From the IMG/VR virus record IMGVR_UViG_3300036791_001038, positions 1-64,000 of that record: a stretch of DNA of 64,000 nt; one strand, 5' to 3'. How positions within the stretch are numbered: position 1 is the first letter of the stretch; each line of letters starts with the position of its first letter. Origin of the DNA: a virus. Of the stretch, positions 9,945 through 25,439 are shown piece by piece. The position numbers were made by a program, and so were the translations under genes. Under the pieces are notes generated by a model that saw nothing but the letters and a program-made list of their open reading frames with translations, was not told where the DNA came from and did not search any database.

Positions 9945-10709
9945 TCAGGTGACCGGGGCGGTCCAGGTGGTGGCCCAGGTCTGAGGTCCCACCTTTCCAT
10001 CCACTGTCAGGTGTTTTTCTGTCTGGAACTGCCTACAGATGCTTTCTGAGTCATTTCCGTATATCTGATCCACGGCGATGTTCCAGCCCCTACTCCGCAT
10101 CTTGTTCTGCCAGGTCCGCACATCGGCGTGGGTGTGGTTGTGGCCGAAGGCCGGGCCGAAGTAGTCCACATGCAGCGGTGGCACCACCGAGGGCTTGTTG
10201 GGGACGGGCGGAGGCGGAGCCGGAGGCGCGCCGCCGATGGAGTTCAGGATGGTCTGGCGGCGGTTCTTCCGCAGGTCGCCGGGGCAACTGGTGTGGCCAC
10301 CCCACCCTGAGCCGCCCATGCCGTGCCAGCCAAAGCCGGGCTGGCCGGGAGCCTCACTGAGGACCTTGGCCCACTTGTAGGTGCCGATACCCCACTGGTA
10401 CAGGCGGGCCAGCATGGCCTCCTGAGCGGCCGTGAGGGGCTCGCTGGGTATCCCCTCGGTCTCGACCGAGTTGTAGGTACTGTTCCCACCCGACTGCGCC
10501 CAGGCGCAAAGGTTGGAATCCACGTACTGCTCCAGCACCCCGGTCTTGGACACCCACCAGGTGGAGGAGGCATCCGCGGTGGGGTTGTTGAACCAGCCCG
10601 ACAGGCCGCCGTTGCCGACTTGGACGTGCAGGACCAGGCCCAGATGCGAGCCCATAGCTCCACCGTGATTGCGGACGGGCTTCCATACCGCGAAGGGACA
10701 GACGGTCAT
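9945..10709 (-). CDS. endolysin: N-acetylmuramoyl-L-alanine amidase plus PG-binding domain
   Basis: LVLH, S.TWW.S.TG..EQYV, AW.Q, VETEG, GWH, CPG; Pro linker; C-terminal D.IYG..S...CRQFQ...L.VDG.VGPQTW. Confidence 0.9.
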   Translation of the reverse strand: MTVCPFAVWKPVRNHGGAMGSHLGLVLHVQVGNGGLSGWFNNPTADASSTWWVSKTGVLEQYVDSNLCAWAQSGGNSTYNSVETEGIPSEPLTAAQEAMLARLYQWGIGTYKWAKVLSEAPGQPGFGWHGMGGSGWGGHTSCPGDLRKNRRQTILNSIGGAPPAPPPPVPNKPSVVPPLHVDYFGPAFGHNHTHADVRTWQNKMRSRGWNIAVDQIYGNDSESICRQFQTEKHLTVDGKVGPQTWATTWTAPVT

Positions 10710-10828: not shown

Positions 10829-11064
10829 GCCTCTCCTTCGGGTGCAGGCTCGGTTACTGGGGCTGGCTCGGGTCCTGCCGGGGTGGGCTCGGCTGTCTCC
10901 TCGGCTCCGGCGTCGATCCCGTACACCGGTTCGGCGGTGGCCGCAGGGCCGGGGTTCTCCACCGGTCGGGCTCCGGGGGGCTGCGTCGAGGGATCTATGG
11001 GCGGGGCTTCGGTCTCCGCTACGTCGCTGGGATCGTCTGGGGGTGCTGGATCGGTATCAGTCAT
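10825..11064 (-). CDS. 79-aa acidic Pro-rich protein
   Basis: MTDTDPAPP...EGEA*, coupled to the next ORF. Confidence 0.6.
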   Translation of the reverse strand: MTDTDPAPPDDPSDVAETEAPPIDPSTQPPGARPVENPGPAATAEPVYGIDAGAEETAEPTPAGPEPAPVTEPAPEGEA

Positions 11065-11098
11065 GGGGTTATCTTGGTGCTTTGGCTGGAGGTTCGCA

Positions 11099-11287
11099 AT
11101 GACCAAATGGCTTATTCGCGATGAAGGCACCGGCACTGTGGATGTGCTGAAGGATCGCAAGAGCTTTGCTTATGACCTTGATGATGTGGATGAGGCTGTC
11201 GCTCATATCAAGCATCATCGATACTATGACAAGGAGGATAAGATCGAGGTGGTCGAGCCCGACGGCTATCGCCATCGCCTGTCCTGA
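11099..11287 (+). CDS. small hypothetical protein
   Basis: GGAGG RBS. MTKWLIRDEG... Confidence 0.7.
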   Translation: MTKWLIRDEGTGTVDVLKDRKSFAYDLDDVDEAVAHIKHHRYYDKEDKIEVVEPDGYRHRLS

Positions 11288-11313
11288 ACCGAGCCAGAGC
11301 CTCGAAGGGGTGA
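11278..11313 (+). promoter_or_regulatory. putative late promoter motif copy 1
   Basis: CCTGTC-N20-GAAGGGGTGA. Confidence 0.7.
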
Positions 11314-11322
11314 GGTGACCCC

Positions 11323-14300
11323 GTGATCAAGTACGCCAGCCTGGAGATCCTCTCCTCCGAGTACGGCGGCGACGGCCCCATCCGCCGTCAGGCCCATCGC
11401 GCCGACTTCGCCTACGACCCCCGACCCGGCTTTCTCTACGTCCGGTCGCGGGCCATCTCCTCGCGAGTCAACGACAACTACGACGGGTTCCCTGCCGAGG
11501 AGATCGAGAAGGGTTACAAGTCCTTCATCGGCAAGCCTGTGTTCGTAAATCACGTCAATGACGACCACCGCCGGGCCAGGGGAGTGGTCATCGCGGCGGC
11601 TCTGCACCACGATGTCAATCCTAATGGTACGCCTGATACCTGGTGTGAAGTACTGATGGAAGTCGATGCTCATCGCTTCCCTAAGCTGGCTCAAGCTATT
11701 GTCCAGGGTCATATTGACAAGACATCGATGGGTGTAGACGTTGAGTATTCCATATGTTCAGCCTGTGGTAATAAGGCTACATCTCCTGCTGAATACTGTC
11801 GTCATATCCCACAACTCAAGGGCAGCAAGATTGTCAGGAGGAATGCAAAGACCGGTAGACCAGAGGAGACTTTGATCTATGAGACGTGCTATGGATTGAG
11901 TTTCTTCGAGAATAGTCTGCTCGTAGAAGATCCCGCCGATCCGACAGCATTTTTCCTTGGAGTTGACAAGCGTGGATTAGATATGAGTCCACACCACGCC
12001 TCGAAGGATCTGGTCGATCAAGCTCCAGGAGACGCCATAGTACATGGCCAGTTCAGCCCTGGTCAAAGAACTGGTTCGAATCTCGCGAACTTCGTCCTCG
12101 GTGAGCTTGGCGCGCCCATGCCAGATACCTCTGGATTGGCGGTCACGGGCGATCTTGTCGGCCATGTTGTCGATGTGGGTACCGACCACCCAGTGGGCGG
12201 GATTCTGGCAAGGCGGGTTGTCGCAGGTATGGCGGACGAACAGCCCATCTGGGATCGGGCCGACCAACTGTTCGTAACCGAAGCGATGGGCATAGGTCGA
12301 GCGACCGTTGACTCGGAGAGCGCCATATCCCTTGTTGGTGCAGCCCCAGGTCCAGGGCCAGCAGGCGTCAGGACCGCCGGAGCGATCAATCCTGGAGAGG
12401 TACCGCTCCATGTCGCCCACGATGACCAGCTTAAACGGTCTGGCCTGGGAGCCTTCGTGGCCAGTTCAGATGAAGAAGGCCCCCGCACCGGCCAGTTCGG
12501 GGACGATCATGCCCTGGTCAATGTCCACCAGGTCAAGTCGCGGCCCAACACCTACTACCTGCACAACCTGTGGGTGAACCCTGATCACCGCGATAAGGGC
12601 ATCGGCTCTCGTCTGATGAAGAGCATCACCGACGAGCATGATGCCAACGGCTCCACGCTGGCCTTGCACACTGATCAGCCTCGATTACAGGAATGGTACA
12701 AAGGCATGGGATTCGAGCCCAAGGAGCGTGATGTCTTCGGCCAGGTGATGGAGCGTCCACCGAGGACGGCTGGACTCAGAGCCTTCGTGGCCGCCAGTTC
12801 AGATGAAGACGACGACCTGTCCACCAAAAGCCCGGCCGAGATCGACGCCCGCCTGGGCGATCACCATACGAAGCTGTATGGCCACCAGGGTCGCCAGGCG
12901 TCGGCCCTGGAGCAGATGCACCACGCCGTGGGGGATCGCCAACAGGGCCGGGGCCAGGGCAAGTTCTGGCAGAAGTCCCACCAGGAGGTCCTCAACCACG
13001 ATCCCTCCACCCTCACCAACCCTCGCCTGGCCCGCGACTACGCCCGCAACCGGACGGCCTATGACTCGGCCGGGGAGGACGCCAAGACCGAGCAGGGCCA
13101 CATCAGCCGCTATGACAACGAGTTCCACAAGCGGGGTGGCTGGTCGAGGTTTTTTCTGGTCCCCGATGGACATATCCACTCCTCGATGCAATGCCACTCC
13201 TGTCGGCCCACCACTCCCTTTAGCTGGTTGCCCAACCTGTCCGGCAAGTCTGAGGGCGAGGCCGTTGAGCAGCACGGCCCGCACCTCTGCACCCATTGCT
13301 TCAAGTCCGCTCCCACCGAGTGGAAGCGGGATCCGGCCGAGACGCGCGCCGAGGAGAAGAAGAAGTCGGGTGAGTATTGCGAGGGCGGCAAGGCCAGCAG
13401 CTACCCCGACGCCGAGGAGCGCGCCCGGCGCAAGGCCACCCATCCGCAAGGCAAGGTCAAGCTAGAGCCCGGCGAGGCCATGTACACCGGCCAGCGGGGT
13501 GGCTACCAGGGCCGTTGCCCCACCTGCAAGACCATCCAAAAGGTCAAGAACTCCGGCGAGTTCTACCAGCACAAGCCGCCCGAGGTACCCAAGGAGGAGA
13601 AGCCCAAGGTCGAGCGGCCGGTGCTACCTGATCCTGGTAAGGGGCTCAAGACCCATCTGCGGCAGAAGCATCAGATGAATACCCATGATTTCGACTCGTA
13701 CCAGCAGTATCAACCGGATAAATCGCTGGATCAGATCCATAGTGATCTGCATGAGAAATACGATAACAATCAGCATGCACCGAACAATCACACCCATGGT
13801 GGGTCTGCGCCGCCTGCCACCACGGTCATGACCCCGCCCAGGGAAGGCTCCAGGAGGGGCCTAAGAGCCTTTGTAGGGGCTGATGCCTCGGGGATAACGG
13901 TGGCCGGTCTCGCGGTGGTGGCCCGCGACACCGGCCGGGTGCTGATGCTGCAGCGCCTGCTCGATGGTAAGGATCCGGCCGGGGGTACCTGGGAATGGCC
14001 AGGCGGTCATATCGGTCAGGACGAATCACCTATCGAGGGAGCCATCCGCGAGTGGAAGGAAGAAGTCGGTCAGCATCTCCCTGAGGGCCATGTAGGGGGC
14101 TCCTGGGACTCCAAGGGGATGTATCAGGGATTCGTGTACGTCATCCCCTCTGAGGACGACATCGAGGTCTACAGCGGCAAGCGACCGGTCACCAATCCCG
14201 ATGATCCCAAGGGCGACAATCCCGAAGCCGTGGCCTGGTGGGATCCCAAGGACCTGCCCGACATGCCCGCTCTGCGCCCTGAGTGCAAGACCACCGACTG

Positions 14301-17300
14301 GTCGCTGTTCAAGCCCGCTGCTATTGCGAAGGTGGCCGTCGAGGAGAAGCCCTCAGAGCCCTGGTATCACAGCGCCGACGACTATGAGGGCGCAGTAGGT
14401 GACCGTACTCATATCACCCGTAATGTGCAGATGGATCTACCCACCCATCTGGTCGCTCATATGCCCGGTGTGATGGATGAGCGTCCTGGCGAACACCGTA
14501 ACATGCAAGGTGATAAGTGGGAGGACTTCAAGAATGACATCTCTGCCAACGGCATCAAAAACCCGCTCTTTATCACGGTGGATCACGGCCAGCGACCCAG
14601 GCTGTCTGAGGGCAACCACCGCAGAGACGCGGCGATTGAGCTAGGCCTCAAGCACGTCCCGGCCCAGGTGCGCTACTACGGTCACGCCGAGCGGGACAGC
14701 GACCTGGAGGACCAGGCCCGCAAGTGGTGGACCCACAATCCCCAGCATCTGCCCAGAACCTCGGCTAGAGCGTCCAGGATCAAATGGGATCAGGTCGAAC
14801 AGGATTACGAACATTCAGGACCGAGTGATTACGGAGGTGCTTACTGGATAACCCCCTCCGGTAAGAACTTGAATGTCGGTGAATACCATTCCAATCTCTT
14901 CAAACATCCGGCCGTTGGTTACAATCCGAATGCTAAGCCGGAGTATGCCGATGAGGATTCCCGTCATGTGCTGGCTCAGGGTGGGGTGCGGATCATGCAT
15001 CTGCCCAACTCCGCCTATGGCAATCGCATAGCCGTCGAGCATCACCATCCTCTCACCGAGGGCCAACAGAAGACCCTGATCAGCTTCGTGCATCGCTCCC
15101 ATCCTGATTCCCTGGACTATGACGGCCCGAATGGCTATCGGCAGTTCGACTTTCCCACTGGGGCCGATGTCCGTAAGCATCTGTCCAAAGAGGCCGCCTA
15201 CGACCTCCTCGGTCCAGGCAAAGGCCACTACTTCGAGCCGGTGGAGGAGGGCAGCGACTGGTGCGCCGTCTGCGGTCACGATCGCCGGGTGACCAAGCAT
15301 CCCCTGCCCAAGCAAGCGGCCGCCGAGCGTCAATATCTCTATCACACTTCTCCCGTTCATAATCGAGCGAGTATTACCGAGAAGGGTCTGCTTCCTAATC
15401 AACCAGGTCATGAAGACGAACCTGAGCTTCCTAAGGGAGTCTATCTTGACTCTGATGAAAAGATGGCTCTCGATACCGGTAATGATTATGGAGAAGATGT
15501 ATGGAAGGTGGATGTCACTGGATTAAAACATCATGTTGATCCTTATTGGGAGGGAGTTGCTCATCGACCTAATACCAGTCATTACGTCAAAGGAGCCATC
15601 CCACCTCATCGTGTGACTCTACACCGGCCTGCATCATGGCATGAATGCTCTGATAAGTCTTGTCACCTTGCAAGGATCGGGCTGCGGGCCTTTGTGGCGC
15701 TGGTGGTCCCCAAGACCTTCTTTCATGGCACCACTGAAGAACTGCAGCCTGGAGATGTCCTGCATCCCGGCAATGAGATGGGGCTGAAGACACACCCTCA
15801 ACTGCACAAGTGGCGGGGGGATCATGTCTGGGCCACCCCCGAGGAGGCCGGGGCCTGGGGCTACTCCGAGCAGGCCGAAACCAGCCGGGGCACCCACCAC
15901 GTTTATGGACCAACGGTCGGTGATCGCCCCCGGCCTCGGGTCTATGAGGTCGAGCCCATGGGACCGGTGCAGAAGCGCCGTCGTCTGAGTCCCTTCGACC
16001 CCGAAGAATACACCATGCCCTCGGCCAGGGTCCTGCGCTCCATCGACATCCCCCACCCCGAGGTGCCGTTACCCACTCAGGGCAAGCCCTCCGGTGGGGG
16101 TATGCAGGGTCGTCTCCCCGGCGAGAAGAGTTGGGAGAACTGGAAGACCCTGGAGCCCGACGCGGCCGATCTCTCCGAGCATTGGGAACTGTCCCGGCGT
16201 CGTCATCCAGAGGCCTGGGCGGCGGGTGATAAGGAAGAGCCAGCCCCAGAGACCGATGAGCATCAGCAGAAGCTCTTCGCGGCTCGAATGGCCGCGCTCC
16301 GGGCCTTCATAGCCGTCAACAGTTCAGATGAAGTACCGCCACCCATGGGGGAGTCGCCCATCCCCGAGGGCCATGTGCGGCTGTTCCACCAGACCTCGGT
16401 GAAGCAGGCCGAGTCGGTGCGCCAGCACGGGCTGACCATGGAGCATGCTCGCGATGTCAGCGGGCCACGCGGCGTCTGGGCCAGTCATGGCACCCGTTTC
16501 TACGGCGAAGGCGATGAGCATGCCACCGTGGAGTTCCACGTCCCTTACGACGAGCTACGCGACACGGCCGGAGGTCAGTCCCCGCATCGGCATCAGCCTC
16601 AGGAGGACTGGGAGAAGAGTACTCACCACACCCTGATTATCCCCCGCTCTATCAAGCCGCATGAGATCTCCGCTATCCATCTGCCCTGGCACAATCGTTA
16701 TCACTACTTCCATGACAACGGCATGACTGATGATGTGAAGAAGGGTGAGTACGACAACCTGTCCGACATGAAGGACTACGGCCCGGCCATCGACAAGATC
16801 AAGCACGAAGCTCTGCGTCATTTGGCCATGCAAGCCGAGGACGAGGTACCGCCCCGGCTCGGGACCGCGCCCATCCCCGAGGACCACGTCCGGCTCTACC
16901 ACCACACCTGGTCAAGGAACGTTCCCGGCATCCGGGAGCATGGCCTGCTGGCCGAGATGGGCCAGGGCGACAGCGGCAAGGGCTACGGCAACGAGGCATC
17001 AGCGGGGGTATGGGCCGCCAGTCAGCATCCCGAGCCTGATCCCCAGAGTGACCGGCATGTGATCGAGTTCCACGCCCATCCAAGAGAGATCGATGTCAAC
17101 GGCCCCTCTCCTGGCCAGGACATCCATAAATGGCAGCAGGGCGATCACAACGTCCTGATGCGGGGCAGTGTGCCGAAAGAGAACATCCTGGCTATTCACG
17201 CCCCTTGGCATACCGCTTATCATCAGATCTCCGAGGATGCCCGCGACCGGGAGGATGTGAAAGGCGGCAAGCTGGACTGGGTCCACAACGATCCCAGCAT

Positions 17301-20300
17301 GAAGGAGATCAGCAAGGCCGTCCACAAGATCCAGTCCGAAGCCAAGAAGACCCGCAACACCGAGAAGCCTCAGCAATGCAACTGGTGCAAGCAGCCCGCC
17401 ACCAAGTCCATGCTGTGGGCCGAGGGTATGGGGTACATCCCCACCTGTGACAAGCATGAGGCAAAGACCCGTGACCACATCGAGAACACCAATGATGACG
17501 AGGTCGTTGCCATCCACCAGATCAAGCAGGGAGCCAAGCAGCCCTATATCGGCAAGGGCTGGTGGCTGACGCCCGAGGGCAAGAAGATCGGGGTCTACGA
17601 CCACTACGAGACCACTCCGGGGATGGCCCGGCAGATGATTCGTCCTCACATGGCCGAGAGTGGTCAGGTCCGGGTCCGTAGCTTCAACAATCAACTCAAC
17701 GTGCAAACGTCGCGGCCGTTCACCGATGCTCAGCGCCAGAGCTTGCTGCTGGATGCCGATAAGCATTCCCGCATGTTCGTGGACGTGCTACACCCCGACA
17801 CCGAGGAGTCCATCCACTCCGAGTCCGGTGGCCCCGAGGACGCCGATCGCATGCTGGCCCGAGCCCACCGGGCCGCCATACCCCACACGGCCGCCCTGAC
17901 TCTCCTGGCCGATCAGCCCTACGCCGGAGGTCACACCTTCCAGTTCATCAAGGCCACCCCCAAGGTGATGGGTGGTAGCTCCCTGCACGAACTGCGGGCC
18001 TATCCCGAGGGCGAGTCCAAGCGCTACTCCGGGTCGCTGCGATGGTCATACAAGTCTGGTGAGATTGCCGGTATCGACGTGGACAAGGACCAGCAGCGTC
18101 AGGGCCTGGCCACCGAGCTACTGGGCCGGGCACGCGATATCGCCGCCACCACCCGAGGGGTGATCGCTCCCAAGCACTCCGATCAACGCACCAACGAGGG
18201 AGAGGCTTGGGCGCGCTCGACCGGCGATCGGCTGCCCCGGCGGCTCACCGGACTGGGGGTGTTCGTGGCCGCTTTTGGACAACCACAGCTATTCGATCCC
18301 GGTAGTGGTGGCCATGAGCATCTACCCAATCCTCGGGGTGGGCTGGACTGGCATCACGGCACTCCGCATCACTTCGAGAGCTTCGAGGAGGAGCGCCCGG
18401 AAGAAGACGATCCCTATGGCGGGTATGACTTCGAGACCGGCGAGAAGTTCAAGCAGCCCCATTGGAACACCCACCTGGGCCAGCACTGGACCTCCCTGCC
18501 GGGCGTGGCCGAGCATTTCGCCAAGGGCCAGTACGGTCAGTATGGGGAAGGCAAGGGTCATGTCATCACCGCTAACCTGGGCGTAAAGCACCCCAAGGAC
18601 TACAAGCTCGAATCCCACATGGACAAGGAGGCCTTCGAGCATGCCTGGGACGGGCATGATCCCCACGATTACCACGATGAGTTCTGCCATAACCCGGAGC
18701 ATCGAGACGACCCCGACGAGGAGCATTTCGATGACGAGCCCTACCACTACAACGACCAGCATGAGCGCGGCGACGAGGTGGACCGCCAGGTCCAGGCCCG
18801 CTACCGGGACCGGGAGCAGCAGGGCGAGTGGCTGAGCCAGCATCCCGACTCGGGCTCCCTGGCCGAGAGCTTCAAGGACAAGGTCCGCCAGGAGGGTCAT
18901 GACGGCATCACCTACGGCAACGAGCTAGAGGGGCCGCACGGCCACCAGTGCGCCATCACCTTCGATGAGCATCAGATCCACAACCCCCGCCGCCGGGCTC
19001 TGGGCAAGCTGGCGGTCGAGGACTACGACACCCTGTACCACATCACCGATCAGCACCACTTCGCCCTGGACCCTGAGCATGCCCCCCAGGACAACGCCTT
19101 CGCCATCCAGGACCGCTCCCACTACAAGGGCCTATACGCGACCAAAGACCCTGACACCTGGCGGGCGCAGGGCTACCACCGGCCTTACGTGGCCGAACTG
19201 CACGTCCCCCATGGGCTGGCCCAGCAGGAGCGCTGGCACGGGGAGAGCTTCATTCCGGCCGAGCATTTCGACAAGGTCAAGGTCAACCGGGTCATCCCCT
19301 TCGATGCTCATCAGCGTGAGAAGTGGGGTGAGCCCGGCACCATCGAGAGCTACCACGGCACCCACTACCAGACCAACCAGCCGCTCAAGAAGAAGCCGGG
19401 CTGGGAGTCATCGGACTACTACGAGGCGGATGAGAACGAGCCTGCAACCAAGGACGTGCGCGACTTCACCCCGAAGGAACACACCCGTCATCTCAAGCGG
19501 CTGCGCGAGTACCTGCACCACGTCCAGGGTTGGGGCTGGAACGAGTTCAACCAGAAGCATGAGCATGTCGGCATAGGCGAGGACGAACAAGACGAAGAGG
19601 GCATGCCCATCCGGCGGGACCAGAAGGGCCAGCCCATGACCCGAGATCGCTATGCAGCCAAGACCGGGCCGATCTACTACCACGGCCATGGCCGGGGAGG
19701 AGCCCGAGCCGCGACCGGCGATCCCGAGTGGGACGACAACCTCTTCGTCAGCCACGATCCCGAGGTGGCCAAGCTGTACGGCCCCAAGCTGGATCGCATC
19801 CAGATGGCCCCCGACACCAAGGTGGCCCGCCATGAACACTGGCTGGGCGCGCAGAGGCCTGACATTGCCCTCAATCTCCTGCGTAAGGCCAAGGCTAAGA
19901 ACGCCGATGTGATCGAGTTCCACAAGCCTCATGACTTCGTCGGTCACATCATCCTGAACAAGGACAAGATCGTCAGCCGGGAGCCCTATGATCCCGGTCA
20001 TACCGCCATGGCCGATCGAGGCGACTACGGCATGGAGCATTCCCCCCACCTGGAGGGACCGGCCTTGCACGAACTGGGGCACAGCTATCCCGACATCTAC
20101 GACCATCCCGAGTACTACGGCTCCATGCATGAACGGCCCGGCCGGGAGTCAGCCCGCGCCCTGAAGAGGGCCAAGGGCATCGGCCCCGACGACCAGGTCA
20201 GCATCTACCGGGCCGCTCCGCACGGGGTCACCACCTTCAACCACGGCGACTGGGTCACCCTCTCCCCCAGCTACGCCCAGCAGCACAGCCGCCACCCCAC

Positions 20301-21045
20301 CGACGAGAGCCGGGACATGCCCATCTACAAGGCCCAGGTGGCGGCCAAGCACGTCCACTGGGACGAGAACGACATCAACGAGTTCGGCTACTCCGGCCCC
20401 GAGGTACCCGCCACCAAGCACCTACCGGGTGGTCCTGACGCGCCGCGCCTGGCTGCCTTCGTGGCCGCCCTGGACCCCGGCCAGGTCTCCGAGGCATCCC
20501 CGGAGGAGTTCCATCGCCGCTTCTCCGAGGCTATGGAGGGCAGCCCCTTCGTCCACCATGTGACCAACCACACTCCCGAGGAGATCCGCTCGGGCGGCAT
20601 GCGCCCGCTCACCACCAACGGTGGCGACACCGGGGTGCTGGTGCATGACCACGGCGACGGCCGTATCGAGGCCACCGGCCTGTACAACCGCTCCAAGGTC
20701 AAGGGCGCGGGGGTCGATCTGCTCAAGCATACCATGGAGCATCATGGCGTGAACTACGTCGAAGCGTATGGACCTAGACTTCCCCAGTTGTACCGACGAG
20801 CAGGCTTCCAGACCACCGAGAAATATCGCTTCGATCGTGAGCAGGCTAACCCTGGCTGGGATTTTCGCCAGTTCGATTCGCCTAGCTATCACATCATGCA
20901 CCCACGTAACACTCAGAAGTCTGGTAAGGTGATCTCATGGCCTTCGACCGCCAGCGTTCCATTCCTGTTCCCATCAACGAGCCTGAGCCCTCCGAGGGGG
21001 CTATCAGCCTTTGGGATGTTGACTGGGACGACCCCGAGCAGGTAG
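11323..21045 (+). CDS. prohead protease fused to a polyvalent multi-effector polyprotein (GNAT x3, NUDIX, ParB-like, ART-like x~8, Zn modules)
   Basis: N-term F.GKPVFVNH...TSMG..V.YSICS.CG...YC.H...FFENS protease-like domain, positioned before scaffold and capsid genes. NUDIX box GGHIGQDESPIEGAIREWKEEVG. ParB EGNHR. GNAT V.PDHRDKGIGSRL. Multiple YH-x-T/HGT ART-like starts. Confidence 0.85.
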   Translation: MIKYASLEILSSEYGGDGPIRRQAHRADFAYDPRPGFLYVRSRAISSRVNDNYDGFPAEEIEKGYKSFIGKPVFVNHVNDDHRRARGVVIAAALHHDVNPNGTPDTWCEVLMEVDAHRFPKLAQAIVQGHIDKTSMGVDVEYSICSACGNKATSPAEYCRHIPQLKGSKIVRRNAKTGRPEETLIYETCYGLSFFENSLLVEDPADPTAFFLGVDKRGLDMSPHHASKDLVDQAPGDAIVHGQFSPGQRTGSNLANFVLGELGAPMPDTSGLAVTGDLVGHVVDVGTDHPVGGILARRVVAGMADEQPIWDRADQLFVTEAMGIGRATVDSESAISLVGAAPGPGPAGVRTAGAINPGEVPLHVAHDDQLKRSGLGAFVASSDEEGPRTGQFGDDHALVNVHQVKSRPNTYYLHNLWVNPDHRDKGIGSRLMKSITDEHDANGSTLALHTDQPRLQEWYKGMGFEPKERDVFGQVMERPPRTAGLRAFVAASSDEDDDLSTKSPAEIDARLGDHHTKLYGHQGRQASALEQMHHAVGDRQQGRGQGKFWQKSHQEVLNHDPSTLTNPRLARDYARNRTAYDSAGEDAKTEQGHISRYDNEFHKRGGWSRFFLVPDGHIHSSMQCHSCRPTTPFSWLPNLSGKSEGEAVEQHGPHLCTHCFKSAPTEWKRDPAETRAEEKKKSGEYCEGGKASSYPDAEERARRKATHPQGKVKLEPGEAMYTGQRGGYQGRCPTCKTIQKVKNSGEFYQHKPPEVPKEEKPKVERPVLPDPGKGLKTHLRQKHQMNTHDFDSYQQYQPDKSLDQIHSDLHEKYDNNQHAPNNHTHGGSAPPATTVMTPPREGSRRGLRAFVGADASGITVAGLAVVARDTGRVLMLQRLLDGKDPAGGTWEWPGGHIGQDESPIEGAIREWKEEVGQHLPEGHVGGSWDSKGMYQGFVYVIPSEDDIEVYSGKRPVTNPDDPKGDNPEAVAWWDPKDLPDMPALRPECKTTDWSLFKPAAIAKVAVEEKPSEPWYHSADDYEGAVGDRTHITRNVQMDLPTHLVAHMPGVMDERPGEHRNMQGDKWEDFKNDISANGIKNPLFITVDHGQRPRLSEGNHRRDAAIELGLKHVPAQVRYYGHAERDSDLEDQARKWWTHNPQHLPRTSARASRIKWDQVEQDYEHSGPSDYGGAYWITPSGKNLNVGEYHSNLFKHPAVGYNPNAKPEYADEDSRHVLAQGGVRIMHLPNSAYGNRIAVEHHHPLTEGQQKTLISFVHRSHPDSLDYDGPNGYRQFDFPTGADVRKHLSKEAAYDLLGPGKGHYFEPVEEGSDWCAVCGHDRRVTKHPLPKQAAAERQYLYHTSPVHNRASITEKGLLPNQPGHEDEPELPKGVYLDSDEKMALDTGNDYGEDVWKVDVTGLKHHVDPYWEGVAHRPNTSHYVKGAIPPHRVTLHRPASWHECSDKSCHLARIGLRAFVALVVPKTFFHGTTEELQPGDVLHPGNEMGLKTHPQLHKWRGDHVWATPEEAGAWGYSEQAETSRGTHHVYGPTVGDRPRPRVYEVEPMGPVQKRRRLSPFDPEEYTMPSARVLRSIDIPHPEVPLPTQGKPSGGGMQGRLPGEKSWENWKTLEPDAADLSEHWELSRRRHPEAWAAGDKEEPAPETDEHQQKLFAARMAALRAFIAVNSSDEVPPPMGESPIPEGHVRLFHQTSVKQAESVRQHGLTMEHARDVSGPRGVWASHGTRFYGEGDEHATVEFHVPYDELRDTAGGQSPHRHQPQEDWEKSTHHTLIIPRSIKPHEISAIHLPWHNRYHYFHDNGMTDDVKKGEYDNLSDMKDYGPAIDKIKHEALRHLAMQAEDEVPPRLGTAPIPEDHVRLYHHTWSRNVPGIREHGLLAEMGQGDSGKGYGNEASAGVWAASQHPEPDPQSDRHVIEFHAHPREIDVNGPSPGQDIHKWQQGDHNVLMRGSVPKENILAIHAPWHTAYHQISEDARDREDVKGGKLDWVHNDPSMKEISKAVHKIQSEAKKTRNTEKPQQCNWCKQPATKSMLWAEGMGYIPTCDKHEAKTRDHIENTNDDEVVAIHQIKQGAKQPYIGKGWWLTPEGKKIGVYDHYETTPGMARQMIRPHMAESGQVRVRSFNNQLNVQTSRPFTDAQRQSLLLDADKHSRMFVDVLHPDTEESIHSESGGPEDADRMLARAHRAAIPHTAALTLLADQPYAGGHTFQFIKATPKVMGGSSLHELRAYPEGESKRYSGSLRWSYKSGEIAGIDVDKDQQRQGLATELLGRARDIAATTRGVIAPKHSDQRTNEGEAWARSTGDRLPRRLTGLGVFVAAFGQPQLFDPGSGGHEHLPNPRGGLDWHHGTPHHFESFEEERPEEDDPYGGYDFETGEKFKQPHWNTHLGQHWTSLPGVAEHFAKGQYGQYGEGKGHVITANLGVKHPKDYKLESHMDKEAFEHAWDGHDPHDYHDEFCHNPEHRDDPDEEHFDDEPYHYNDQHERGDEVDRQVQARYRDREQQGEWLSQHPDSGSLAESFKDKVRQEGHDGITYGNELEGPHGHQCAITFDEHQIHNPRRRALGKLAVEDYDTLYHITDQHHFALDPEHAPQDNAFAIQDRSHYKGLYATKDPDTWRAQGYHRPYVAELHVPHGLAQQERWHGESFIPAEHFDKVKVNRVIPFDAHQREKWGEPGTIESYHGTHYQTNQPLKKKPGWESSDYYEADENEPATKDVRDFTPKEHTRHLKRLREYLHHVQGWGWNEFNQKHEHVGIGEDEQDEEGMPIRRDQKGQPMTRDRYAAKTGPIYYHGHGRGGARAATGDPEWDDNLFVSHDPEVAKLYGPKLDRIQMAPDTKVARHEHWLGAQRPDIALNLLRKAKAKNADVIEFHKPHDFVGHIILNKDKIVSREPYDPGHTAMADRGDYGMEHSPHLEGPALHELGHSYPDIYDHPEYYGSMHERPGRESARALKRAKGIGPDDQVSIYRAAPHGVTTFNHGDWVTLSPSYAQQHSRHPTDESRDMPIYKAQVAAKHVHWDENDINEFGYSGPEVPATKHLPGGPDAPRLAAFVAALDPGQVSEASPEEFHRRFSEAMEGSPFVHHVTNHTPEEIRSGGMRPLTTNGGDTGVLVHDHGDGRIEATGLYNRSKVKGAGVDLLKHTMEHHGVNYVEAYGPRLPQLYRRAGFQTTEKYRFDREQANPGWDFRQFDSPSYHIMHPRNTQKSGKVISWPSTASVPFLFPSTSLSPPRGLSAFGMLTGTTPSR
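11977..12420 (-). CDS. HNH homing endonuclease nested antisense in the giant ORF
   Basis: CWPWT...GYG...YAHRFGYE...VRHTCDNPPCQNPAH..VGT..DNM.D; C-terminal AKLTEDEVREIR HTH. TAAGCT -10 lies 7 nt upstream. Confidence 0.9.
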   Translation of the reverse strand: MGDMERYLSRIDRSGGPDACWPWTWGCTNKGYGALRVNGRSTYAHRFGYEQLVGPIPDGLFVRHTCDNPPCQNPAHWVVGTHIDNMADKIARDRQSRGIWHGRAKLTEDEVREIRTSSLTRAELAMYYGVSWSLIDQILRGVVWTHI

Positions 21046-24446: not shown

Positions 24447-25439
24447 ATGACTCTGGTTGCCAACGTTGCGGGGCTAGCTCCAAAGCGGGCCAAGAAGTCC
24501 GACGACTACGTCGCTGAGATCCTCAAGCGGCGCGGCGGGGATGGCAACGTCCCGTCGCTGACCCATGAGGCCAAGGTCCGCAAGCTCTCCCTGATCCTCC
24601 AGGACGAGGTCAACGGCATCCGCCGTCTGGGCGTGGGCATGGTCGGACCCATCCAGTTGAAGCTGCGCTACCAGGGCATCACCCGCAACGTGCTGATCGA
24701 GGACCCAGTCACCCCCGGCACCCCGGTCGAGTACGACGTGTGGGACGACCTGGGCCAGGCCTACCTCATGAGTGGCACCGAAGGCGAGGTCCGGGTCACC
24801 CCCTTCGAAGGCAAGCGCCTGCCCATCCGGTTCTGGCGTATCGCCTCCCGTCCGGCCATCCGCAAGGAGGACCTGTTCTACCTCCGCATCAACGCGGTGG
24901 AGCAGGCCCAGGACGAGACCAAGCAGGCCATCATGAAGCAGGAGGACTCCCGCCTCCTGGTCATCATCCAGGCCGCCCTCACCGACTACGCCTCCAGGCC
25001 CGACCATGTCGTCACCCCCAACCACACCGTCTACGAGGCCAGCGGCTACTTCACCCCGCAGTCCATGTACACCGCGGTGGCCCAGTCCGACATGCACGAA
25101 CTGCCAGCCGGGCGCATGCTGGTCAACCCCTTCGACTACCGGGACTTCTTCCGCTGGGACATCAACACCACCGGCTGGGCCTTCAAGGACCGCATTGTGG
25201 CCGGGGAGCAGATCCAGACCTTCGGGGAGTTCAACTTCCAGCGCTCCATCATGGTCCCCCAGGGCCAGATGTACCTGCTGCCCAACCCGGACTTCCTGGG
25301 CGTGTTCCCGGTGCTGTACTCGCTCGACGTGGAGGAGAACCACAACGTCGAGGCCTTCTGGAAGGGCTGGGTTTTCGATGAGATGGTCTCCATGGCCATC
25401 CTCAACCCCAGGGGCATCACCACCGTCCTCAAGGGCTAG
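24447..25439 (+). CDS. major capsid protein
   Basis: 330 aa, strongest codon bias, AAGGAG RBS. PIQLKLRYQGITRNVL..D and GWVFDE.VSMAILNPRG recall cluster-C-like HK97-fold capsids. Confidence 0.85.
   Translation: MTLVANVAGLAPKRAKKSDDYVAEILKRRGGDGNVPSLTHEAKVRKLSLILQDEVNGIRRLGVGMVGPIQLKLRYQGITRNVLIEDPVTPGTPVEYDVWDDLGQAYLMSGTEGEVRVTPFEGKRLPIRFWRIASRPAIRKEDLFYLRINAVEQAQDETKQAIMKQEDSRLLVIIQAALTDYASRPDHVVTPNHTVYEASGYFTPQSMYTAVAQSDMHELPAGRMLVNPFDYRDFFRWDINTTGWAFKDRIVAGEQIQTFGEFNFQRSIMVPQGQMYLLPNPDFLGVFPVLYSLDVEENHNVEAFWKGWVFDEMVSMAILNPRGITTVLKG

Follow-up and report, generated by a model that had tools for sequence, protein, structure and literature searches.

The window analyzed here is a stretch of soil-phage DNA of 64,000 nucleotides (positions 1 to 64,000 of the 77-kb IMG/VR record IMGVR_UViG_3300036791_001038). 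One very long ORF on its plus strand encodes a protease-cargo polyprotein, and a small HNH endonuclease gene, present as a single copy in the record, lies antisense inside that ORF, right behind the protease domain. The features of the locus are collected in Table 1.

Table 1. Features of the polyprotein locus and of the antisense HNH insertion (positions of the window)
Feature	Coordinates	Strand	Basis or detail
Protease-cargo polyprotein (polyvalent protein): predicted prohead protease and multi-domain virion cargo	11323..21045	+	Single 3240-aa ORF (ORF listing)
Predicted prohead (capsid maturation) protease domain, aa 1-218; conserved C-terminal end ...DPADPTA..GVD.RG	11323..11976	+	PHROG families, homologues
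Low-GC3 tract, 3′ part of the protease domain, abutting the HNH 3′ end	11611..11976	+	GC3 profile
Intact gene of HNH_3 plus C-terminal helix-turn-helix, predicted homing-type endonuclease	11977..12420	-	147 aa from GTG; 144 aa from ATG at 12411
Filler: 155 host-ORF codons, the in-register antisense reading of the HNH cassette	11977..12441	+	Stop-free, predicted disordered
Part of the insert upstream of the HNH ORF, 21 nt, with TANNNT-type hexamer TAAGCT at 12433-12428	12421..12441	-	No homology to L003
First GLGAFVA motif, candidate protease cleavage site; homology to HNH-less L003 restarts here	12442..12462	+	
First cargo module, GNAT acetyltransferase core	12529..12729	+	Pfam Acetyltransf_1 8.9e-15, aa 403-464

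A protease-cargo polyprotein in the head module

In a PHROG profile search, the first domain of the polyprotein matched phrog_18299 (head maturation protease, 1.9e-23) and phrog_2774 (4.6e-68). It is 47-50% identical to proteins of Bxz1-type mycobacteriophages, and its homologues in Gordonia and Rhodococcus phages are annotated as capsid maturation or prohead proteases. H77 and S135 are invariant in nine relatives, and by family match and these conserved His and Ser residues the domain is a prohead (capsid maturation) protease, with activity and cleavage specificity that are predicted. The cargo behind it includes GNAT, NUDIX, ParB_N, and Arr-like domains (Pfam), and the gene sits in the head module, upstream of the major head protein gene at 24447-25439.

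With many unrelated effector-type domains recognized by similarity in one virion-module polypeptide, the product is a phage polyvalent protein. The available portion of the paper on that class (Iyer, Burroughs, Anand, de Souza, and Aravind 2017, PMC5512222) likewise presents multi-domain virion proteins, whose modules include GNAT, ART-like, NUDIX, and ParB-like ones that a peptidase is proposed to set free. Embedded endonuclease genes are not described in that portion, whereas one is present here.

Eight GL[RG]AFVA-like motifs are found where modules of the polyprotein meet; the relative L003 has only two such motifs in its polyprotein of 2218 aa, and they are absent from the other relatives. 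Cutting by the protease at these motifs is a candidate, putative step. A role of the motifs as internal restarts, each with a Shine-Dalgarno (SD) sequence and a GTG, was considered and rejected, since the Val/Ile codon is GTA or ATA, not GTG, in two of the eight.

An intact HNH gene on the opposite strand

The antisense ORF scored 34.8 bits against Pfam HNH_3 (PF13392; cut-off 24.8, E 1.3e-8), matched PHROG endonuclease and HNH families with values down to 5e-30, and aligned over its full length in tblastn with annotated HNH endonucleases of phages (45-49% identity). All invariant and near-invariant residues of the family are kept, including the His/Asn catalytic residues and the Cys ligands of the beta-beta-alpha-metal core, and those that are invariant in 35 homologues (C20, W23, H64, C66, N68, C71, N73, H76, N85, and D88) are all present. 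The idea that the C-terminus was borrowed from host codons was rejected, as the ...W-x-H-I end is native to the family.

The AlphaFold2 model of the protein, for which a beta-beta-alpha-metal fold is a candidate, has a pLDDT of 95.5, and its top fold match in the PDB is I-HmuI (1u3e; prob 0.99, E 6e-3, TM-score 0.39, 14% identity), followed by I-PpoI; a sequence search against solved structures found no significant match. As in I-HmuI, an HNH nicking homing endonuclease of Bacillus phage SPO1, the model places an HNH nuclease before a helical DNA-binding part. I-HmuI is intron-encoded and on the sense strand, whereas the gene described here is antisense, and nicking by its product is putative. 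We regard it as probably a small selfish DNA-cutting gene, an HNH homing endonuclease, with an activity that is predicted.

The 144-aa form is already recorded as a called gene, and a second member, 97% identical, is encoded on another contig. We consider the ATG at 12411 a more likely start than the GTG at 12420. An earlier reading of the letters and ORFs of this DNA, made with no database search (the sequence-only reading), had given the gene a -10 element of its own, seven nucleotides upstream. A hexamer of that type does stand 7 nt before the GTG, but a sigma-70 scan called no site there, no convincing promoter or ribosome-binding site was found for the gene, and the argument from spacing is weakened because the ATG is the likelier start. 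A metagenome scan with the HNH returned matches of at most 51% identity, near alleles being absent from them, and a degenerate DNA pattern of the HNH N-terminus found nothing in IMG/VR.

Borders of the insert and alleles that lack it

In 10/10 IMG/VR relatives a single ORF encodes protease and cargo as a fusion, with no HNH, and the complete 157-kb genome of L003 contains no HNH homologue. Alignment with L003 and with the soil contig X3, both HNH-less, puts the empty site at 11975/76, which is the end of the protease domain, where the sequence-only reading had located the insertion. Homology to both alleles ends 1 nt short of the complemented HNH stop and restarts at GLGAFVA. The insert is at most 465 nt long, of which the HNH ORF takes 444 nt and 21 nt lie outside the ORF, too few to hold a ribozyme. 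Compared with other alleles, the locus differs in length by 423 nt (X3) and 309 nt (X4), both divisible by three.

The HNH gene is thus present or absent at one and the same site: the window and contigs X2 and X4 have it, and X3 and L003 do not. Contigs that are ~91% identical, from two other soil studies, carry it at the same position, and an assembly chimera was rejected because the same junctions recur in independent assemblies of other studies. A second lineage is polymorphic as well, with the HNH in P0232 and none in L190, an HNH-less allele of the P0232 lineage. This is the presence/absence pattern of a mobile homing endonuclease gene, for which site-specific cleavage or nicking of the empty allele and gene conversion would be predicted.

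In diverged lineages, antisense-HNH filler follows right after the protease domain in three further proteins of the same protease family (P0229, P0231, and P0232, from clusters with less than 50% identity to one another), a set that is subject to ascertainment bias, as long filler-bearing proteins are findable only when their frames are open. At the conserved HNH positions, the host-strand residues are compatible with the conserved HNH residue in 26/27, 26/28, and 23/26 cases (P0229, P0231, and P0232, respectively), compared with 57-65% over all positions. To judge from the host-strand proteins, the HNH ORFs of these diverged alleles would be intact. P0229 and P0231 had no match in viral or genome collections.

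Codon register and the chance of an open frame

The edge of the HNH gene at 11977 lies 654 nt into the polyprotein ORF (11977-11323 = 654 = 3×218), and the codons of the two genes, on opposite strands, coincide. Across 11977-12420 the host frame has 0 stops, while the other two plus-strand frames have five and four. The HNH stop TAA is the complement of a plus-strand TTA (Leu) codon, and its start, whether ATG or GTG, reads as His on the host strand. The host ORF is continuous because the HNH gene is without TTA, CTA, and TCA, the three codons that read as stops backwards.

An open in-register antisense frame is, taken alone, unremarkable. It is stop-free in 39/104 high-GC homologues, and the codon usage of this phage gives an expected chance of 0.27. 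For an insertion to be at once in register, stop-free, and frame-preserving toward a conserved fused ORF, the joint chance is ~0.03. Antisense frames other than the in-register one were open in none of the first 80 homologues. The in-register antisense frame is the sole one able to stay open, and surviving insertions are therefore expected to look like this one. The sequence-only reading had described an intact HNH gene in exact codon register inside the polyprotein and had cautioned that such frames are often open in high-GC genes; the gene and its register both stand, and the caution was correct, with a frequency of ~0.3.

Of six long antisense ORFs that span HNH homologues at other loci, five match no family and seem spurious, and one, L114, matches helicase families.

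The filler and signs of splicing

The filler has no PHROG family match. It is predicted with a pLDDT of 22-30 and no secondary structure, against 54-78 for the neighboring GNAT module, which is likewise without homologues in the alignment. An Rfam search of 11000-13200 found no intron at E<=10, and neither Pfam nor PHROG gave a Hint or intein family. The insert starts with Leu and ends in Lys-Arg-Ser followed by Gly, with no terminal His-Asn. As far as motif and profile comparison can tell, the ribozyme core of a group I or group II intron is absent, and so are the Hint domain, the N-terminal Cys/Ser, and the C-terminal His-Asn plus Cys/Ser/Thr of an intein. That the endonuclease gene invaded with neither intron nor intein, as the sequence-only reading had supposed, agrees with these results and with an insert that is almost all HNH ORF. 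The polyprotein is probably made with ~155 extra floppy residues, with no intron or intein needed to remove them.

Proposed mechanism and alternatives

We propose that a free-standing, I-HmuI-like gene of HNH_3 plus helix-turn-helix inserted antisense exactly at the end of the protease domain, and that this codon-on-codon placement would keep the host ORF continuous. Ribosomes on the late polyprotein mRNA would read straight through, with no RNA or protein splicing, and ~155 disordered residues would join an inter-domain spacer that is already variable. The filler would be tolerated because it lies between independently folding modules, and it may be trimmed when the protease cuts at the GL[RG]AFVA motifs. 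An antisense transcript of its own would supply the endonuclease, which would spread by cutting HNH-less alleles of the conserved protease gene, dragging flanking protease sequence along. Taken whole, this model of antisense in-register insertion with read-through of a disordered spacer seems to us likely.

A wider proposal is tentative, and we hold it to be possible rather than probable. A dedicated HNH lineage may have specialized on the prohead-protease domain of protease-cargo polyproteins of actinophages, at its conserved 3′ end, and may persist over deep divergence precisely because it is antisense, codon on codon. Some 440 nt (~440) would then be under dual selection, for the nuclease and for stop-freeness, and the element would need no splicing vehicle and be hard to delete, while its homing would drive recombination and cargo-module exchange nearby.

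If instead the insertion splits the gene, the protease would be left with a junk tail, or translation would fail in the filler, the cargo would be restarted downstream, for example at the GTG at 12457, and the continuity of the frame would be a high-GC coincidence. An SD-like GGGAG lies 5 nt before that GTG, in-register antisense frames are open by chance in 27-37% of cases, and free-standing endonuclease genes are known that divide a phage gene into pieces which still work, as in Aeh1 nrdA and phage 25 gene 43 (PMC2988022). However, GGGAG is made up of the Gly-Leu-Gly codons of the linker motif, in which the Val/Ile codon is not always GTG, and with no stop codon, ribosomes from the protease start must go on into the cargo anyway. 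The low joint chance given above, the fusion kept in every one of the ten relatives, and the frame that is open across the same insert in three further diverged lineages also speak against a split, which we judge unlikely.

We are still more doubtful that the HNH ORF is decaying or silent and is retained as a neutral scar, not an active mobile element, because its precise removal is difficult. Such a state would fit the silence of the promoter and ribosome-binding site scan, the single copy in the record, and a search of sequencing runs that listed the locus in no RNA run, but it is at odds with the kept invariant and near-invariant residues, the confident structural model, the conserved protein on another contig, conserved HNH residues that are encodable in three lineages of different 50%-identity clusters, and presence/absence polymorphism in two lineages.

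Domestication, with the nuclease serving the phage by, for example, excluding co-infecting relatives or aiding DNA packaging, appears very improbable. As PMC11855218 mentions, HNH proteins can work for terminases when they are encoded beside head and packaging genes; free-standing endonucleases favor their carrier through marker exclusion (PMC2988022), and this HNH gene does sit in the head module. The relatives that lack it nevertheless include complete genomes, and the protein is of the HNH_3/I-HmuI-like homing type, not of the terminase-associated type. Least credible of all is that the insert splices itself out as an element of a kind not yet described, be it an intron whose ORF runs antisense or a non-canonical intein, for although inteins and introns are the usual vehicles of endonuclease genes in essential genes and inteins with out-of-frame endonuclease ORFs have been reported (bioRxiv 10.64898/2026.09.14.751524), the Rfam and Hint searches were empty, only 21 nt of insert are not HNH ORF, the filler is predicted to be disordered, and neither a terminal His-Asn nor a Cys, Ser, or Thr is found at junctions formed by Leu and Gly.

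Relation to known endonuclease insertions

The closest published cases are the "hidden" HNH endonucleases, the ShiLan domain and the Pacc40 gp60 insertion, in DNA methylase genes of actinobacteriophages (Arsenault, Gosselin, and Gogarten 2025, PMC11855218). There too, an HNH lies in a host ORF that reads across it stop-free, with no detectable intron or intein and an insert that is nearly all HNH ORF; what the host frame encodes across it is disordered and has no matches, the distribution is disjunct among close relatives, and the carriers are phages of high-GC actinobacteria. In those cases, the HNH occupies a different frame of the same strand and the host gene is a dispensable methylase, whereas here the HNH runs antisense, codon on codon, at a domain boundary of a head protease-cargo polyprotein. 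The words reverse, antisense, complement, and opposite do not occur in that paper. Because of the opposite strand and the codon register, the locus is an antisense variant of the ShiLan-type insertions and not a member of them.

Free-standing homing endonucleases are also known to split phage genes, as mobE does in nrdA of Aeromonas phage Aeh1 and a seg-like gene in gene 43 of phage 25 (PMC2988022). Like the present case, these are endonuclease genes that lie, with neither intron nor intein, in a conserved phage gene of critical function, and for both, co-conversion of the flanks is expected. They leave the host gene as two separately translated polypeptides, whereas the host frame described here is continuous.

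In a cyanobacterial dnaX intein, the endonuclease ORF is said to be on the opposite strand. That intein (bioRxiv 10.64898/2026.09.14.751524) resembles our locus in having the endonuclease in a frame other than the host's, so that one DNA stretch is under two constraints. Its extra residues leave by protein splicing, whereas our searches found no splicing element in this insert.

To our knowledge, homing endonuclease genes are thought to survive in essential genes only through removal by an intron or intein or in a host gene that tolerates being split. The locus supports a third route, in which antisense, in-register nesting leaves the host frame intact and the extra residues fall in a flexible inter-domain spacer. 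If read-through is true, standard annotation, which forbids nested antisense genes, would systematically miss such elements or mis-split their hosts. The same premise would make long natural antisense overlaps a clean system for studying dual-strand coding constraints, and the elements themselves would mark sites at which a virion polyprotein takes ~150 inserted residues without loss of function.

The low-GC3 tract

GC3 is 0.33-0.60 over protease residues 101-218, compared with 0.8-0.9 before them and 0.9-1.0 at the same residues in eight relatives. The sequence-only reading had raised the possibility that this is a co-conversion tract. The tract does exist, and among soil contigs it goes with the HNH-bearing alleles; the HNH-less contig X3 is 81% identical or unalignable within it and 94% identical downstream of the insert. 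Single-donor co-conversion is only one possible origin among others, however, because HNH-less L003 has part of the tract in common (~aa 81-160) and the GC3 of the HNH gene, 0.75, is higher than that of the tract. Further low-GC3 patches occur within the polyprotein.

An HNH gene antisense to the head protease-cargo gene

The source record is a soil viral contig of 77 kb, estimated to be 54% complete (IMG/VR), of which the window covers the first 64 kb. The endonuclease encoded by the minus-strand ORF is complete and belongs to HNH_3 (Pfam score 34.8 bits, cut-off 24.8), with a helix-turn-helix part at its C-terminus; PHROG HNH families match it down to 5e-30, and annotated phage HNH endonucleases give full-length tblastn matches at 45-49% identity. 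Every residue invariant across 35 HNH homologues is kept, and the AlphaFold2 model (pLDDT 95.5) has the homing nickase I-HmuI as its top PDB match (prob 0.99, with a weak E of 6e-3). A 144-aa form starting from the ATG at 12411 is already on record, and retention of ...G[ED]VPLH, the antisense of a Met/Val-Glu-Arg-Tyr start, in the proteins P0229, P0231 and P0232 favours this ATG as the probable start. The sequence-only reading had assigned the gene its own -10 element; the TANNNT-type hexamer TAAGCT does lie 7 nt upstream of the GTG, but it is 16 nt from the favoured ATG, and a consensus promoter scan called no site there.

On the plus strand, residues 1-218 of the host ORF are a head-maturation protease (phrog_18299, 1.9e-23), annotated in Gordonia and Rhodococcus phage homologues as capsid maturation or prohead protease, and H77 and S135 are invariant in nine relatives. 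The remainder carries GNAT, NUDIX, ParB_N and Arr-like domains (Pfam) with eight GL[RG]AFVA-like motifs between them, and the major head protein gene lies downstream. This multi-domain cargo fits the published 'polyvalent proteins' (PMC5512222), from which the host gene differs in its N-terminal peptidase.

Features of the locus and long proteins carrying the filler, the in-register plus-strand reading of the HNH cassette
Feature	Position	Strand	Length	Remark
Endolysin-like gene	9945-10709	-		phrog_1493, 2e-32; just upstream of the head protease gene, opposite orientation
Host ORF	11323-21045	+	3240 aa	ORF listing
HNH ORF	11977-12420	-	147 aa	ORF listing
Filler	11977-12441	+	155 codons	
P0229			866 aa	protease then filler
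P0231			1201 aa	protease then filler; 50%-identity cluster representative
P0232			602 aa	protease then filler; 50%-identity cluster representative

Insertion site and codon register

The protease is fused to 860-2200+ aa of cargo as a single ORF in all ten IMG/VR relatives (46-85% protease identity), none of which has the HNH. In one of them, L003, no HNH homologue was found in the complete 157-kb genome, and the stretch from the conserved ...GVD.RGL to the first GLGAFVA is 30 residues long; in the window, the 155-codon filler occupies this place. The soil contig X3, from another study, aligns up to 11975 and again from 12487 with 88 nt between, a difference of 423 (3x141). Two contigs from further soil studies, X2 and X4, are about 91% identical and carry the HNH at the same site; past it, X4 skips the GNAT module, a difference of 309 (3x103). 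In the alignments, L003 and X3 place the left border at 11975/76. The left junction thus precedes the complement of the HNH stop codon by one base, and the right junction is no more than 21 nt from the HNH start, so that the ORF accounts for 444 nt of an insert of at most 465 nt.

The antisense embedding described from the sequence was borne out. Codons of the two genes coincide on opposite strands because the offset of 654 is 3x218, and the host frame crosses the HNH with no stop, with five and four stops in the other two plus-strand frames; the HNH contains no TTA, CTA or TCA codon. By itself, the open frame is ordinary, since the probability of lacking these codons is 0.27 under the codon usage of this phage and the in-register antisense frame is open in 39 of 104 high-GC homologous HNH genes, as the earlier caution about such genes had anticipated. 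No other antisense frame was open among the first 80 homologues checked. Multiplying in-register entry (1/3), openness (about 0.3) and in-frame exit (1/3) gives a joint chance of about 0.03 for a random insertion; one with all three properties would be the expected outcome of survivorship in a gene required to stay fused.

Recurrence in diverged proteins

Recurrence was tested within this protease family by searching with the filler as a protein, a search that can find only open-frame proteins and to which closed-frame cases are invisible. Three long proteins, P0229, P0231 and P0232, share this protease family at their N-termini, with the filler right behind the protease domain; L190 is an allele of the P0232 lineage without the HNH. 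Working from protein sequences, we checked position by position if the residue read from the host strand leaves the conserved HNH residue encodable opposite it. This held at 26/27, 26/28 and 23/26 conserved positions, respectively, against 57-65% of all positions, and it indicates that the nuclease was maintained while the host frame remained open. One other plausible embedded case, in an Lhr helicase, emerged from 160 loci that have homologues of this HNH.

In that locus (L114:3-1433, minus strand), the ORF of an Lhr-type helicase, which matches Helicase_C and the first 36 positions of WH_Lhr, continues stop-free into an in-register antisense homologue of this HNH. The same arrangement may thus occur in a cellular gene here, on a contig (1433 nt, 70% GC) too short to show whether Lhr resumes. 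Of the 84 representative proteins matching the filler, about 78 (within P0233-P0313) are just 70-300 aa and are probably wrong-strand gene calls, in public protein sets, over free-standing HNH genes. Near the C-terminus of P0232 (aa 465-599) lies a further HNH domain, separate from the filler and encoded on the sense strand, and residues 159-264 of P0239, whose 694 aa include a protease of another family (phrog_3677), resemble the filler.

Read-through and its alternatives

All evidence weighed here is computational, and we regard ribosomal read-through of a disordered spacer as the likeliest mechanism, and a probable one. The filler would be translated between protease and cargo, and maturation cleavage may trim it afterwards. 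In a model of residues 1-483, the filler has no secondary structure and a pLDDT of 22-30, and the neighboring GNAT module, likewise without homologues in the alignment, reaches 54-78; no family matched the filler in a profile search. A separate restart of the cargo at the GTG at 12457, behind GGGAG, is possible yet unnecessary, and it is poorly reconciled with the conserved protease-cargo fusion and the recurrent open frames, which leaves it unlikely. We give somewhat less credence to the HNH being a silent relic, a reading to be set beside its intact conserved residues, and domestication of the nuclease seems improbable. Least probable of all is removal of the insert by a splicing element of an unknown type. 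The insert appears to be neither intron nor intein, as first proposed: an Rfam search gave no match at E<=10 around it, Pfam and PHROG profile searches found no Hint family, and there is no room for a ribozyme. Its first residue is Leu, and Gly follows directly after it.

The closest published case is the 'hidden HNH' of ShiLan in mycobacteriophage methylases (PMC11855218), which shares the logic of an HNH hidden in a host ORF; there, however, it uses a different frame of the same strand and the host gene is dispensable, whereas here it is antisense, codon on codon. In nrdA and gene 43, free-standing endonucleases break the host gene by splitting it (PMC2988022), while the frame here is continuous, and inteins with out-of-frame endonuclease ORFs, unlike this insert, have their extra residues spliced out. 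By these comparisons, the antisense in-register insert is a variant of the already known hidden-HNH kind.

Low-GC3 tract and cargo modules

The suggestion of a co-conversion tract beside the HNH held in part. Protease residues 101-218 have a GC3 of 0.33-0.60, with 0.9-1.0 in eight relatives. The HNH-less X3 is unalignable over 11457-11673, 81% identical over 11674-11975 and 94% identical downstream of the insert, and the HNH-bearing X2 and X4 align across the tract at 91%, a mosaic that fits linkage between tract and HNH. However, three observations speak against simple co-conversion: part of the tract (about aa 81-160) is also present in L003 without the HNH, the GC3 of the HNH is 0.75, and comparable patches occur elsewhere in the polyprotein.

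Two such patches with GC3 <0.5 (14803-14922 and 15403-15642) suggest a mosaic origin of the cargo modules. X4 lacks the GNAT module (window 12415-12808) with the frame preserved, and linker copies 1 and 2 (12435-12476 and 12766-12809) are 84% identical in DNA; thus, modules seem to be exchanged through recombination at the GL[RG]AFVA linkers. Protease-cargo homologues, many with DUF7178 (PF23802), were also found on contigs of ~150-157 kb that are listed as belonging to Streptomyces and Kitasatospora genomes, a hint of the host range and of phage DNA inside those assemblies.
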